A stretch of 64,000 bases of DNA, taken from contig OX597824.1 in NCBI GenBank assembly GCA_951406725.2, positions 65,906,001-65,970,000 on the forward strand. The letters run 5' to 3'. Of this stretch, positions 5,684 through 64,000 are shown piece after piece. The notes below the pieces were generated by a model. The model did not search any database. It was not told where the DNA came from and saw only the letters and a list, made by a program, of their open reading frames with translations. Position numbers and translations under genes: made by a program. This DNA is from Octopus vulgaris. Taxonomy: Eukaryota. Within the stretch, counting starts at the first letter, position 1. The number at the start of each line of letters is the position of its first letter.

Positions 5684-7160
5684 ATATATATATACACACA
5701 CACACATGTCCATTTCAAGGATACTAGATATTAAAGTACACGCAGGCGCGTGCACGCGCGCACACACACACACACATCTATACCTTTTTACTTGCCTAGA
5801 CACATAAATGTATGTATAACAGCTTTGATATATCATCGATCAGTCGTGATTTCAAATTCAAAATACCACTAATCCCTTTTGTATGCCTATCTTCCTCTGT
5901 CGGTCTTTTTGTTGGGCGGTTCACCTGATGAAATATAGGTAACTAGTTGCTGTCAACGTCTAGCATCATCAACGTCCACAAGACAGCGAAGGGCGCCTCT
6001 ACGCAGTGAACCGACCTGCTAGAAATAGAAGCCAAAACTCGCACGTTGTTGTTTGAAAAAAAAAAATGTGGGTGGTGGCAGATACATCAGACTATGATGT
6101 AATCACTGATATACCGGGACGTCTTTTGATAAGTTTGTTCAATTAAGACCGTTGTCATCATCAGCAGCATCACCCTCATCGTCAATAACAAGCAGTAATC
6201 GAGCCAGTAAGTTGTGTTTATATAGACCTGTTAGAAATAGCAGTCACATGTCCAACAATTCACAACCTTCAGCCTTATCCCCCAAATCCCTAAACAAACA
6301 AATAGGGGACACATTGAAAGACTTAGTTCTAGACTTTGAAGGTGTTTTTGTTAATATTTATATTACACATCAGTTAAGCTCACCTTTTTATTTTTTACTC
6401 TGGATTCTTTATAAAGAAATTGTCAGTCTAAACACCAAACAATTAGTACACACCTAGTGGTGGTGGTGGTGGTGGTGTTAATGTAGGTAAATGACTACCT
6501 TTAAGTTCATAGCACGATAGGTGAGGCTATAACGCTATTAGTAAGTAGTAGCTCCATTTCTTAATATTGACTAAACTTTTTTGTTCTACACGCAGGTAAT
6601 GCCTAAGTATATCTGACTTAACTTTATAAAATGGTTGTTGGCTTTGTGGTTCGTTCTTTGAAAAGTTGATTTTGAAATGTCGGCTGTTTTGTCTTTAGTT
6701 TCAGGAAGCTATGTTATAAATAAATAAATAATCTATCTTATCGTGTCAACTAGACAAGGTTTGGAAGCCATCGTTAAGTTATTTAAGCGTACAGCTGATG
6801 AAATTATTGGTCAAGCAAACTCCCATCTATAAATGAGTCAGTTTCACGATCAGGGTTGAATTGGGGCTAAAAATCAACATCGAAGACGACGACAAACACT
6901 CTCTCAACAAAGAATCCCTATATACTTGTGAATATGTTTCTATATGGGTATTTATGAAGGAGGTAGCTCATAAGATATAAAACTAAAGATGACAGTTTTT
7001 AGTAAAAAGAAAAACAAAACAACAAAAACCGTCCATTTTTGTCAACATTTACTATTAGTGCATGTGCGTATGCGCGCAAATTTAGCTTTATCAAATTATA
7101 GCTTACACGTTTACATATATACATTGACTAGTAGTCAATATCCGCACTTCTTTCAATATA

Positions 7161-51710: not shown

Positions 51711-52019
51711 TGTGTATGTGCATGTACATACATGTGTGTATTGAAATAAATAAATGAAACTGAAATGAAGATAAACCTTTACATTAAAATAAACAACAAT
51801 CAATTTATCAATTTTTAATTATCATTAGAAGTTCCTTTCTTTTTACATTTTTGCTGTTTCAATTTTATTGTTATTTTAATGTTTTTTTAGATAACATTTT
51901 ACTGGATATGATGTTTTTGTTTCCCTGGTCGTGTCCTATAAGACAGGTCGTTGTTGTTGTTATCATCATAACCATTCTTCAGTATTATAATTTTTATCAC
52001 TGCAACCATTGCCATGACC

Positions 52020-52275
52020 ACCTCTTGCATCACTACCACCACTGCTGCTGCTGTGCCTGCCACCACCACCACCACCGCTGGTCCCATCACCACCACCTCT
52101 GGTCCCACCACCACTGGTCCCATCACCACCACCACTGGTTCCATCACCACCACCTCTGGTCCCACCACCACTGATCTCACCACCACCACTGGTCCCACCA
52201 CCACTACTTCTCCCACCACCACTACTGCTCCCAACACCACCACTGTTCTCACCACCATTACTCTCACCACCAATA
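52020..52275. repeat. (ACC)n-based minisatellite with ggtccc interruptions
   Basis: Repeated accaccaccactggtccc units. Confidence 0.85.
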
Positions 52276-53454
52276 TCATTGTAACACCAAAGGAGCATCT
52301 ACAGCAGTCATGGGCAAACTGTGGCCTATGGGATTTTCTGAATAGCATGCCTAAGAGAAAGATACTTTGAATTCTTTTAGTAGTGCAACCTGCTTGATGA
52401 TGATTCATGTCTCATGCAGCCCGCTTCTCAAGGCGTTTGCTGTTGTCCAATGCCTGTTCTACATGATAACTAGAAAAAGCAGCCAATTTCCTCAAATTGC
52501 ACCCTACTGCCTTAAAACGGAAGGATACATCAATAAATGTTGTCCTAGATATACAAAATAACAGGAGCATCATGGGTGAAATACCTTAGATCAGAAGGTC
52601 TGCTGAATGAGGGCTGACTCAGGGTTAGGGTTAATTGTATGAAAGACTTCATGAGAGCATAATAATTAAGCTGTTGTTGCTGCTGTTCTTGATGATGAGG
52701 ATTATGATGATAGTCACCTTCATCCTCCTCATCAACATCATCTTCATCACAGCCACTACTGCCGCCACCACCACCCACTACTACTATCACCACTACTACT
52801 ATCACCACTACCATCATCCACATTGTTTTTGTGCTTTCTTTTTGTGTGTTTTGTTTGGACAGTTGTTTTGTGGAAGGTTTGCATTACATGTAACTATCTT
52901 CCTCGTCTCCACCAACCCAATTCCCTTCGACACTCTGGCTACTTATCTATTGTGTACTAATTCTAATTAATATCATTAATGTCATACTGTTATTAATAGT
53001 TTCTCTCTCTGAGAGCAGAGCTCTAAGGGATGAGAGAATATGTGGCATGTGAGATGAGAGTTAGAAAAACTGCCAACAAGCATCCCCATCCTACCCCAGA
53101 AGGTTTTTGTAGCTAAAATTCTCTCTAGTAGGTAGTGATAATAACTAATTACTTAATGATTTCTTACATTGGCACAAAGCCGGTTATAAATTTGTAAGGG
53201 ATGGGTGTGTGTAGACAACTAAAGTATTTATTAAGAATATTTATTGGTATTTGTTACAGCAACCAGTGGTGGGATGAAAAGCATGTTTGATGAACCTTGC
53301 TGGTATTTGAGTTTAGCACATGGGAGGGTTAAAACTAAGTATTGTTATATTTGTGCTGATTTATTCTGAAGTCAACCTTGATCATGCAGACTTATGGTGA
53401 AAGATATTCAAGCCTTGGACATCTTGTCATTTTTTTGTTTGTTTTCAAAAATTG

Positions 53455-56041: not shown

Positions 56042-56177
56042 TGCTTACACATCTAGTTGCTGTATATGGAAACAGCTATTGGATGTTGATGTCACAGATG
56101 CTCTGACCTATAACTTCACTGATTCCAAAGGCAGCAACAGGTTGTTTAAAACTTTGCGGATAGATTCCAGAAAAATT
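56042..56177 (+). CDS. AFTPH: Aftiphilin coding exon 3 (136 nt, phase 2 to 0)
   Basis: Acceptor ttttctttcag and donor gtgagt; (S)AYTSSCCIWKQLLDVDVTDALTYNFTDSKGSNRLFKTLRIDSRKI aligns with the conserved aftiphilin W..L.D....L.Y....S.....L..L.ID.R.I block. Confidence 0.88.
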
Positions 56178-57084: not shown

Positions 57085-57261
57085 TTGGTGACTCACAAGA
57101 AGCCAGGCGTTCCAATATTTGCAGCGAACTTAGGTTTATTGGAACCCAGCAAAGTAATTAGTGGTGAGCTTATGAAACCTTCATCCAATCTGGTGCCATC
57201 GTTGCCGCAGGAAACTCTCATAGATACCAACCGTACGGATCAGTGTGATTCCCTCAGACAG
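57085..57261 (+). CDS. AFTPH: Aftiphilin coding exon 4 (177 nt, phase 0 to 0); gene continues past the window
   Basis: Acceptor ttctttcttctatag and donor gtgagt; LVTHKKPGVPIFAANLGLLEPSK matches the aftiphilin VP.(Y/F)AA.LG.LEP.K motif. Confidence 0.9.
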
Positions 57262-57729
57262 GTGAGTTTAATCCTCAGTTAGTTTATTTCAGTTTTTGGC
57301 CAGTGGTAGCTGCACTTCATTGGCATGATTATTTGTCAGGTACATTTTGAGCTTGATACTCATGTGAGGTTGATTCTTTTTATTGTTATTCTTGCTTTGA
57401 GTCTAAAGACTGGCGCAACTACTTACTTTGGGATCTTTGGTTTCCACGCATATTATCTTTATTTCTGACACCTTATTGCTTTAATCTCATAAATCTTTTC
57501 TTTATCTTTTTCCTTTCAACTTCATACCTATGTTCTTACAAATATTGTTCTAATATATTAACTTATCTTTCAGGAACCCCCACCACCTTTTGTCATTTGT
57601 TAAATTTGTTTCAGTGTCTTCTATAATTTCAGGAAAGCCTTCATCAGCCTCTTTTTCTGAGATGAGTGTAAAGTTTTTATAAAGAATTCTTTTCAGTTTT
57701 GATTTTATTTTCTATTAAATTATTATTAT

Positions 57730-57765
<36 letters not shown>

Positions 57766-57797
57766 TTATATATATTCATACATACATACATACATAT

Positions 57798-57848
<51 letters not shown>

Positions 57849-58050
57849 GTGTATAAGAGGTATTGGTATCAAGAAGACCCAAAGGTGTTAGGTAATGCTG
57901 AGTAAGTGCTATGGACAGACTATAGTTAAGCTCCAGATTCGATGAGGAGTCTAACATACGTCGTGTATTAGCATGTAATTATATAAAAATTAACAGAATG
58001 AGATAAAAAAATCCAAGGCTGTGAATAGTTTTCAGAACCTTTATAAAGAG

Positions 58051-58098
58051 GTCTTACAGCTGTTTCTGGGATATTTTATATATCCCTTCATCAGAGAC
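58051..58098 (-). ncRNA. Type I hammerhead ribozyme motif (left arm of inverted repeat 58018-58229)
   Basis: Exact reverse complement of 58146-58193. Confidence 0.85.
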
Positions 58099-58145
58099 GG
58101 TGCAAGAAAATGTTGAAGTAATAGTTATAGAAATTTTCTCACACT

Positions 58146-58193
58146 GTCTCTGATGAAGGGATATATAAAATATCCCAGAAACAGCTGTAAGAC
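58146..58193 (+). ncRNA. Type I hammerhead ribozyme motif (right arm of inverted repeat 58018-58229)
   Basis: gtct-CTGATGA-a-gggatat-ataaa-atatccc-a-GAAA-cagctg-TA-agac; intact core and palindromic stem III; predicted cleavage after 58189. Confidence 0.85.
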
Positions 58194-58268
58194 CTTCTCT
58201 TTATAAATGTTCTGAAAACTATTCACAGCGTTGTATATATATCTATCTATATATATATATATATACAT

Positions 58269-58305
<37 letters not shown>

Positions 58306-58356
58306 CACATACATATATATGAATATATATATTATATGTATATCTATATCTATCTA

Positions 58357-58410
<54 letters not shown>

Positions 58411-58439
58411 AAAATAAGCAACAAGGATGTCCAGAGGTA

Positions 58440-58527
58440 ATGCAATACGATTGTTTCAAGCAACTCCATTTAATTGAACAATGCAATCATTACATTTATT
58501 TAAATGCAGAGCAATCCTCAGCTGCAT
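58440..58527 (-). ncRNA. Type I hammerhead ribozyme motif with extended stem II
   Basis: Minus strand reads atgcag-CTGAGGA-[ttgctctgcatttaa...ttaaatggagttgctt]-GAAA-caatcg-TA-ttgcat; the partner arm on + reads GAAA-cgattg-TA-ctgcat (58655-58672). Confidence 0.65.
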
Positions 58528-58845
58528 AAAGACATAGAATTTAATTAAATTAAAGCAAGTGGACACATTAGTACAATTTTGCCTAAAATCTCCAAGAAGG
58601 TAAGGAGATAGGCAAAGAACATGCTGCCTTCACTTCAATTAAATGGAGTTGCTTGAAACGATTGTACTGCATTACCTCTGGATATCCTTGTTGCTTATTT
58701 TGATTTTAATCACCTTATTATGAAATTGTATGGATAATACTGTACTAAATTCTGGTGCCTCAACTTAGGTACCATATTCATCTGAATTTAAATTTTTGCT
58801 GAACTTGTTTACCATATACACACACATATATATATACATACATAT

Positions 58846-62281: not shown

Positions 62282-62606
62282 TATTACTGATGAAGGTTAT
62301 CCCCCACTCCCATCAACAATCAATTTCCAGCTGGAAATTGATTGCTGATAGGAGTGGGGGATAACCCCCTACCTTTTACCCTTATGGCTGACAGATGGCA
62401 TAGCTGAAGGAGGACGACACAGCTGGAAGCCGATGACCAGCACCAAAAGGACATAACCCCTATTGTTTATATCTATTGTTACCCCCCCGCCATATTTTAA
62501 AGAGGCCATAGGCCAACAGGTCTTAGGGTTTGAAGATACACCATTAAGGTACCCTTTATGGTGAGAAACCTAGGGTAACCCTATAAATCTGCCTTCACCA
62601 GTAATA
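62282..62606. mobile_element. TIR-bounded element with a 72-bp palindrome and a hammerhead motif
   Basis: TIRs tattactgatgaagg / ccttcaccagtaata; palindrome 62295-62366; HHR motif 62524-62583. Confidence 0.6.
62524..62583 (+). ncRNA. Type I hammerhead ribozyme motif (U3 variant)
   Basis: tagggt-TTGAAGA-ta-caccat-taaggtacccttt-atggtg-a-GAAA-cctaggg-TA-acccta; 6-bp stem I. Confidence 0.65.
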
Positions 62607-62935: not shown

Positions 62936-63019
62936 GGCTACATATGTTTCATAGCTAGTGAAACCTTGGAAGTAGTAATTATCCAAATGGGGGGTAATCC
63001 ACTAGCTACTCATCAAGCC
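62936..63019 (-). ncRNA. Type I hammerhead ribozyme motif (U3 variant, long stem II), left arm of inverted repeat 62897-63239
   Basis: Minus strand reads ggc-TTGATGA-gtagctagtgga...ttcactagctat-GAAA-catatg-TA-gcc. Confidence 0.7.
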
Positions 63020-63115
63020 AAAGATACCTAAGTCAAATGAAGGTTGCAAACCTCCTGCAAGTTAATATGGAATCCCTTGACAACAATGTAGCCTTCATTT
63101 GTCTAAGGTATCTTT

Positions 63116-63199
63116 GGCTTGACAAGAAGCTCGCGGATTACCCCTCATTTGGATAATTACTACTTCCGAGGTTCCACTACCTACGAAACACATGTAGCC
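63116..63199 (+). ncRNA. Type I hammerhead ribozyme motif, right arm of inverted repeat 62897-63239
   Basis: ggc-TTGACAA-gaagctcgcgga...ttccactacctac-GAAA-cacatg-TA-gcc. Confidence 0.6.
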
Positions 63200-64000
63200 T
63201 GAATTTTATTTACTCCTTTCTCTAAATTTGGATATTTATATATATATATATGAGTAAGTGGACAAACGAAAGAAAGAGCACTCTCCAAATATATTTGGTG
63301 GAATGCTATTTGTAGTTTGATTGATAGTAAGAATGTAGATTGATCCGTGTGTGCATGTGTGTGTACCATTTTCTCTAATTCATAAGATTCTGTTATCAGT
63401 TTGGAAATGTGGATCATTTAAAAAGTTTCTTTTGATTCATGCATGAAGTACTGTCTAAAGTTAGATTCAATATGTCTAATTTTATTACTTAACATTTCTT
63501 GTCTCATTTAGCTGCATGAAGTCTCATCTTGCTAACTTGTATGAAATTTATTGCTCTTTTTCAAGGATTTCTTTTTTGAGAAATATATTTCTATTATGAC
63601 ATATGTATATATGAAATCTGAAGTATTTCCATGGAAAACCCCCACCAACATATGACAGTACTCCAGCATGGCCATGTGTGATGCAGTTTTAATTTTAAGA
63701 AAGTATAAAAAAATTACCCAAACTATAGAATTTACAAAATGCTTTTTTTAAAATTTATTTTGTTATCTATTTATTTTTTTGCTTTTTATATAGATTTGTT
63801 TTCATTTTCTAGCAAATGCACTATGTTGATTTGGGAATCTCACCATGAACACAGCCCTCTTTCCTATCAGAATATTTGATTATATGTAAATGGATATAAG
63901 AAGCAAAACTGATGAAACATTCTTTTATTCCCATGATGTATCCTGCCTAACATTCCCTGACTAGTTCACAGTACTCAACACACTAGAACTTTCTCTCTTC

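Follow-up and report, generated by a model that had tools for sequence, protein, structure and literature searches.

The window, a stretch of 64,000 nucleotides from Octopus vulgaris, contains coding exons of AFTPH, and the two hammerhead motifs analysed here lie in an intron of that gene. AFTPH was identified by a PF15045 match on the exon 56043-56177 (26.7 bits, cutoff 22.5), and the three best Atlas matches of the large exon are all aftiphilins, with lead-level scores of 0.83-0.84. Three coding exons were located up to 57085-57261, and 232 nt of the transcript contig have no exon placement. Runs X1 and X2, available as contigs only and of guessed RNA nature, cover the last of these exons, and the X2 contig joins its end at 57261 to an exon at G000:C11:65990956 (L116:956), a join that fits splicing. 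Because this contig bridges 27.7 kb, the hairpin formed by the two motifs is intronic; the intron reaches window-equivalent 84955. The hairpin begins 757 nt past the exon end, in agreement with the distance of about 0.8 kb from an AFTPH coding exon given in the initial annotation. Elsewhere in the AFTPH span, 51972-52370 holds a Thr/Pro-rich repetitive open frame, probably a triplet repeat. The locus comprises the following features.

57085..57261, plus strand: coding exon of AFTPH that precedes the host intron (X1 and X2 contigs cover 57085-57261/3)
57728..57845, no strand: (TA)n/(CA)n microsatellite, left flank, likely target, from its sequence and the (TA)n preference of the Hydra clade in the available part of PMC8557442
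57846..58128, minus strand: 5'-truncated PLE 3' end, long-terminus copy, with hammerhead, short-terminus site near 57985 and tail of about 140 nt
57846..57985, minus strand: one-sided 3' extension (tail) past the family short terminus, on exactly one arm in 24/27 pairs
58051..58098, minus strand: type I hammerhead motif, left copy, identical to 58146-58193, predicted cleavage 3' of 58055
58112..58132, no strand: hairpin loop, made of unmatched left-copy 5' bases and the junction of two truncated copies near 58128
58128..58233, plus strand: second 5'-truncated PLE 3' end, inverted head-to-head, tail-less, 87-94% identical to family copies
58146..58193, plus strand: type I hammerhead motif, right copy, from sequence, folding and family columns
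58234..58408, no strand: (TA)n/(CA)n microsatellite, right flank, from sequence

The arms of the hairpin, 58018-58111 (94 nt) and 58133-58229 (97 nt), are reverse complements of each other apart from four substitutions (right-arm positions 58140, 58141, 58145 and 58208) and one 3-nt gap (58195-58197). All five differences fall outside 48 nt, 58146-58193 on the plus strand, that are identical to 58051-58098 on the minus strand; twin 48-nt hammerheads in a hairpin of about 94 bp with differing flanks had been described at the outset, and both elements of that description hold. The predicted minimum free energy of the hairpin is -150.4 kcal/mol (z -25), and 0/200 shuffles were equally good. In the family alignment the left copy matches up to 58128 and the right copy from 58128. 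(TA)n sequence lies on both flanks of the hairpin, as it does around most printed family copies. A MITE-like element with 70-nt inverted ends that are 94% complementary (58409-58703) directly adjoins the insertion. Further along the window, a short hairpin at 62287-62370 starts with CTGATGA, shows no evident hammerhead junction and has Rfam miRNA-like matches below cutoff, and about 63000-63240 looks like an imperfect inverted repeat.

In the right motif the core consists of CUGAUGA (58150-58156), GAAA (58178-58181) and UA (58188-58189), stem I of GUCU/AGAC (4 bp, 58146-49/58190-93) and stem II of 7 bp (58158-64/58170-76), which is preceded by A58157 opposite A58177. Stem III is the palindrome ACAGCUGU at 58181-88, so that core, stem I, stem II and palindrome were all found as first described. 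Both arms carry the type I core residues C3 U4 G5 A6 N7 G8 A9 / G12 A13 A14 A15.1 / U16.1 H17 and three stems, open at stem I. Stem III has 2 bp in a monomer (P about 1e-4) or 8 bp in a dimer (-11.1 kcal/mol). No G10.1-C11.1 pair closes the core directly, as the A-A opposition comes before the G-C pair. Cleavage of the right motif is predicted 3' of A58189. The hammerhead model was absent among the 88 matches at E<=1 in an Rfam scan of the window, and the Rfam miRNA matches on the hairpin and the microsatellites all lay below the gathering score.

The parent PLE family

The copy at 57846..58128 is 81-84% identical over its span to the copies at L011, L012, L049, L128 and L148; with 57846-57990 as query, 2473 genome candidates were obtained, 40 of which were scored. 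The copy at 58128..58233 ends about 30 nt short of the usual short terminus. The right arm gave 1502 candidates in the 2.8 Gb genome, and all 40 that were scored matched, giving 48 matches. Most family copies are single arms with variably truncated inner ends. A 5' walk through other copies reached the end of an ORF, for which there are 10023 candidates, 150 of them scored. From the 150 scored matches, 20 8-kb loci were picked because their frames were long or their scores high; in 17 of them the arm follows the endonuclease on the same strand, mostly at 0.9-1.5 kb, and three (L106, L108 and L111) lack it downstream. RT and C-terminal GIY-YIG are collinear with the hammerhead end in L100, L097, L185 and L188; the last two are natural copies that contain RT, EN, arm and tail, L185 with an inverted tail-less arm in addition. 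The supposition that the parent was a PLE is thereby borne out, and 5' truncation, inverted or tandem ends and an optional tail were all found in the family.

A DNA transposon with long terminal inverted repeats, such as a MITE, would explain why a short unit ends in inverted arms and why the copy number is high. The predominance of single arms, the variable truncation of their inner ends and the tail on one end only speak against it, and the collinearity of the arm with the RT/GIY-YIG ORF contradicts it; this reading is almost certainly wrong and was rejected. Naiad was also rejected, as it has an N-terminal endonuclease and lacks a canonical hammerhead.

The family ORF contains DKT, YRDD, CxCX5C, a GIY-YIG box and CxxC..E..N..CxH. 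The replacement of DKG by DKT is seen as FSDKT in L154, L155, L159, L162, L164, L166-168 and L171. Inspected by eye, the translations of L095, L099-L103 and L108 have the CxCX5C linker, CxxC and CxH around conserved E and N, and one cysteine between the GIY and YIG boxes, thus lacking a two-cysteine CCHH core. RWK is present in L162 and L168, and the closer copies L154 and L156 have RRK. The match to PF01541 (GIY-YIG) had an E of 0.0027, below cutoff, and Pfam revealed no RT family in the Hydra-type fragments or the intact sister ORFs. From its DKT, linker and endonuclease motifs and a by-eye comparison with the Hydra-1_Obim protein, the family appears to be an unlisted cephalopod PLE of the Hydra clade; it is not among the available Hydra rows of PMC8557442 files S1 and S2. 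Since open frames reach at most 336 aa among the best RT matches (150 scored out of 4901 candidates), the family appears to be dead, unless an intact copy escaped detection.

Intact Hydra-type families occur in the same genome (L172-L183: G000:C19:23217871, C4:96407101, C5:50456810, C4:50168599 and C9:84178954). They have ORFs of 800-1090 aa and many copies, seem young, and carry hammerheads 0.4-2.0 kb past the ORF, some with stem II regions of 40-55 nt. L174 (G000:C2:37615500-37625400) holds an intact sister element of 981 aa and a head-to-head inverted partner with a 660-aa frame. Fragments of a second PLE type with a two-cysteine GIY-YIG core are inserted beside family copies at L105:212-1216 and L112:1741-2244; they are Neptune-like.

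Conservation of the core and identity of the twin motifs

For the family comparison, 89 copies were aligned that had been found via upstream DNA, the endonuclease or the tail and not via the motif; 16 of 143 matches were left out as partial, and a copy had to match the arm in BLAST to be detected at all. Apart from position 4, the core departs from the majority in 32/889 cells, as against 196/2708 flank cells (columns with at least 85% majority), a difference with a nominal P of 7e-5 across copies that are non-independent. G8, A9 and A14 are invariant in 89/89 copies; in loop II both the length and the sequence vary. The same core recurs in four Hydra-type sister families whose ORFs are intact (loci L172, L177, L179 and L180); their stem I sequences and stem III palindromes are different, and one of the palindromes is imperfect. 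Because the core varies less than the flanks and is shared by the sister families, the motif is, judged from these alignments, a selected hammerhead of the PLE lineage. Conservation of CUGAUGA and GAAA over the flanks, on which the initial annotation had made its proposal depend, was thus recovered in the family outside position 4.

The A-A opposition at the base of stem II had been singled out as atypical. In the family, 57 of the 89 copies have A-G and 22 have A-A. Exact 48-mers in the genome, sorted by 58176-77, number 30 with CG, 10 with CA (two of them the AFTPH locus) and 13 with TG. This is the symmetry predicted by CpG decay, so the A-A is likely a decayed A-G; TA at these positions is a shared state of an older subfamily, which means that part of the family also inherited A-A. 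A special standing of the opposition is therefore not supported, and in the rows available from PMC8557442 file S2 the stem II base is mismatched in 15/26 Hydra elements, mostly as U-U. The sister at L180 has A-C there. U-U replaces A-G at L097:1577-1662 and 6350-6424, as in the Hydra polyp elements.

Position 4 (column 58151) is C4 in 38 and U4 in 48 of the 89 copies, and the form combining C4 with A-G was the commonest of four exact 48-mers tested (47 genome copies). C4 follows subfamily-diagnostic columns (58218, for example, with P 9.5e-7), which argues that master copies carried it; the window copy falls in a U4 subfamily. Lunse et al. 2017, the principal account of variant PLE hammerheads, may already include U4C or mismatched forms. 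Apart from that paper, which may cover them, no U4C PLE family and no octopus hammerheads beyond those of PMC8557442 were found in the literature searched. In the accessible part of PMC3088659, U4C reduces activity in vitro but still allows viroid infectivity.

The identity of the twin motifs had been taken as conservation at the AFTPH locus. For five events among 97 columns, P is 0.03 that a fixed window of 48 columns stays clean and 0.18 that some run of 48 does. Three of the five are transitions at family CpG sites, and the remaining two give P 0.24. In 16 other twins the motif differs in 64/766 cells (8.4%) and the flanks in 76/742 (10.2%); only 1 of the 16 has no motif difference, and L137 has no substitution at all. 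Thus, there is no good evidence of selection at the AFTPH locus, though its twins are among the cleanest seen, and the claim of conservation was not upheld: local purifying selection as the cause of twin identity was rejected, given P values of 0.03-0.24 depending on the null and the lack of marked protection in the 16 other twins. Some homogenisation or protection may have acted at this locus. The window arms depart from the family column majority by 0.7%, other sets by 2.8-6.6%, a comparison that is partly circular as it was built around the window arm. Both window arms share a CpG-derived A, which requires that they stem from the same source copy, underwent conversion or were hit twice in parallel.

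Folding and origin of the insertion

An isolated monomer is predicted to favour an alternative fold (-14.4 vs -8.5 kcal/mol), with stem III at P 1e-4. Two isolated copies co-fold with a double hammerhead as the minimum free energy structure (-32.9 vs 2 x -14.4 kcal/mol), and the palindromic stem III would thus suit a dimer, as originally suggested. In the context of 57950-58300 the stem II pairs form with P <= 1.2e-14 and stem I with P < 1e-43 on both strands. The two copies face outward, so that on either strand the antisense arm is transcribed ahead of the sense motif, and, being on opposite strands, the twins cannot dimerise with each other. This arrangement is predicted to leave the locus with little prospect of activity in vivo, less than that of solo copies. 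The motif at the AFTPH locus is accordingly predicted, by equilibrium folding, to be sequestered and likely inactive in its context; it had been put forward as the best candidate for an active ribozyme in the window, a rank that the head-to-head geometry would deny it on both strands.

A different view would be that the motif has been exapted as an active intronic ribozyme and, as monomer or dimer, cleaves the pre-mRNA of AFTPH, the duplex perhaps having first been opened by editing or a helicase. The locus does lie inside an expressed gene, it retains the canonical U4 core found in only 33/89 motif-independent copies, and its arms differ in 0/48 motif positions against five events in 49 flank columns, the fixed-window P of 0.03 given above. 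That value rises to 0.18 post hoc and to 0.24 once CpG transitions are set aside. Identity between sense and antisense copies also strengthens the blocking duplex, which is predicted for both strands, and gains nothing for catalysis; editing would be expected to strike the core adenosines as well. In the available text of PMC4209133, PLE hammerheads cleave poorly even as dimers, and in PMC11167929 they cleave only with protein. Exaptation is, on these grounds, highly improbable. An A>G difference at 58177 also occurs in the DNA-sized runs X17 and X19, which points to paralogues and not to editing. None of the contigs listed spans the junction between the arms. The hairpin duplex could serve as a substrate for A-to-I editing or small RNAs.

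The head-to-head arrangement is routine in the family. With duplicate loci removed, 27/30 adjacent arm pairs are head-to-head, 2 are tandem and 1 is tail-to-tail. The tail (query 57846-57975 of the window) is on one arm in 24 of the 27 head-to-head pairs, on both in 0 and on neither in 2, with 1 uncallable; 8 of these pairs had been picked for the tail and 1 is the window itself. The other 18 comprise 15 with the tail on one arm, 2 with none and 1 uncallable. One tail in 15/17, against a ceiling of one half under independence, gives P about 0.001 by hand arithmetic. For PLEs, the consulted portion of PMC3846280 describes head-to-head ends that may have a 31-bp tail on one side, and that of PMC8557442 inverted 5'-truncated copies; the family counts supply figures for the one-sided-tail rule.

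Very probably, then, the insertion consists of two 5'-truncated 3' ends of a high-copy PLE, joined head-to-head in the AFTPH intron, with hammerheads that are likely inactive. As to how it arose, the endonuclease may have cut the (TA)n tract, after which each target strand would have primed its own reverse transcription, from a long 3' start site in one case and from a short one, about 140-150 nt away, in the other. The two cDNAs would have halted just 5' of the hammerhead and then been joined. In PMC11167929 a PLE protein acts on both target strands, cutting and extending each, and the tail is bounded by two RT start sites. Within RNA of the element, the motif would form a double hammerhead via ACAGCUGU and cleave weakly, perhaps helped by protein. 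In AFTPH pre-mRNA or an antisense transcript, the first-made antisense arm is predicted to capture it in a duplex of about 90 bp, which would leave with the spliced-out intron. The window copy appears to be decaying, mostly at CpG.

The inverted pair might instead be a single fold-back product, formed on one RNA or cDNA through self-priming or template switching, and not by two primings. The accessible part of PMC3846280 reads inverted junctions as self-priming, and both window arms share subfamily letters and CA at 58176-77. Arms at the same locus, however, often differ in family-polymorphic states (the TTC indel in 7/17 twins, position 4 in 4/17), although slippage and CpG decay could yield some of these differences, and the twin spacers vary freely from 3 nt to 3.5 kb. 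Fold-back is therefore less likely than not; it would alter the proposed step only and leave the identity of the feature unchanged. Returning to two primings, start sites fixed 140-150 nt apart would entail exactly one tail per pair. The broadest form of this reading, a tentative one that falls somewhat short of an even chance, is that every inverted insertion arose by opposite-strand primings at two such fixed RT start sites, and that U4C + A-G masters transposed through several subfamilies. Were it true, transposition of these masters would mean that the hammerhead is rescued by protein or dispensable for mobility in vivo.

Comparison with known systems

The AFTPH-intron locus itself is a real motif in an ordinary transposon remnant. 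Of use to PLE specialists are the one-sided tail of about 140 nt, the U4C masters and the intact sister families. The natural core variants (U4/C4 and A-G/A-A/U-U) could test whether PLE hammerheads must cleave for transposition, a test that the intact 800-1090 aa ORFs of sister families in this genome would bring within reach.

The comparisons below draw on the available portions of the papers cited. The Hydra-clade PLEs (PMC8557442, Hydra-1_Obim and Penelope-13_HM) share with the present family the C-terminal GIY-YIG, DKT, the CxCX5C linker, CxxC/CxH around E and N, (TA)n targets, an inverted 5'-truncated copy and, at the 3' end, a type I hammerhead whose stem III is palindromic and whose stem II is often mismatched at its base. 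The hammerhead here differs in sequence from that of Hydra-1_Obim, which makes this a separate family. The element is longer than the usual <3 kb of the clade, with an Asn-rich insert and a 3' UTR of 1-1.5 kb; in place of U-U it has an A-G or A-A mismatch; it often carries U4C, against U4 in each of the 26 Hydra rows of file S2; and the tail is about 140-150 nt instead of 30-40 bp. According to the same file, Penelope-13_HM, a Hydra element, carries a hammerhead on both strands.

The minimal PLE hammerheads of PMC4209133 have in common with this motif a 7-bp helix II, a 4-bp helix I, an extra nucleotide after A9, a palindromic helix III and a predicted dimer. The present motif has one further extra nucleotide, which faces the first from between C11.1 and G12. 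That paper had also recorded dual motifs in Schistosoma, on opposite strands and 100-700 bp apart. Non-LTR retrozymes (bioRxiv 10.64898/2026.07.22.740005) likewise have a type I hammerhead of PLE origin but form tandem arrays; with only 2/30 adjacent arm pairs tandem here, a retrozyme array was rejected. The inverted pLTRs of Adineta vaga and Poseidon of Anolis (PMC3846280 and PMC11167929) share head-to-head inverted ends, an optional tail at one end, Asn-rich inserts and two RT start sites with the octopus family, whose tail is four to five times longer and for which strict one-sidedness has been counted, at 24/27 pairs with the tail on one arm and 0 with it on both.
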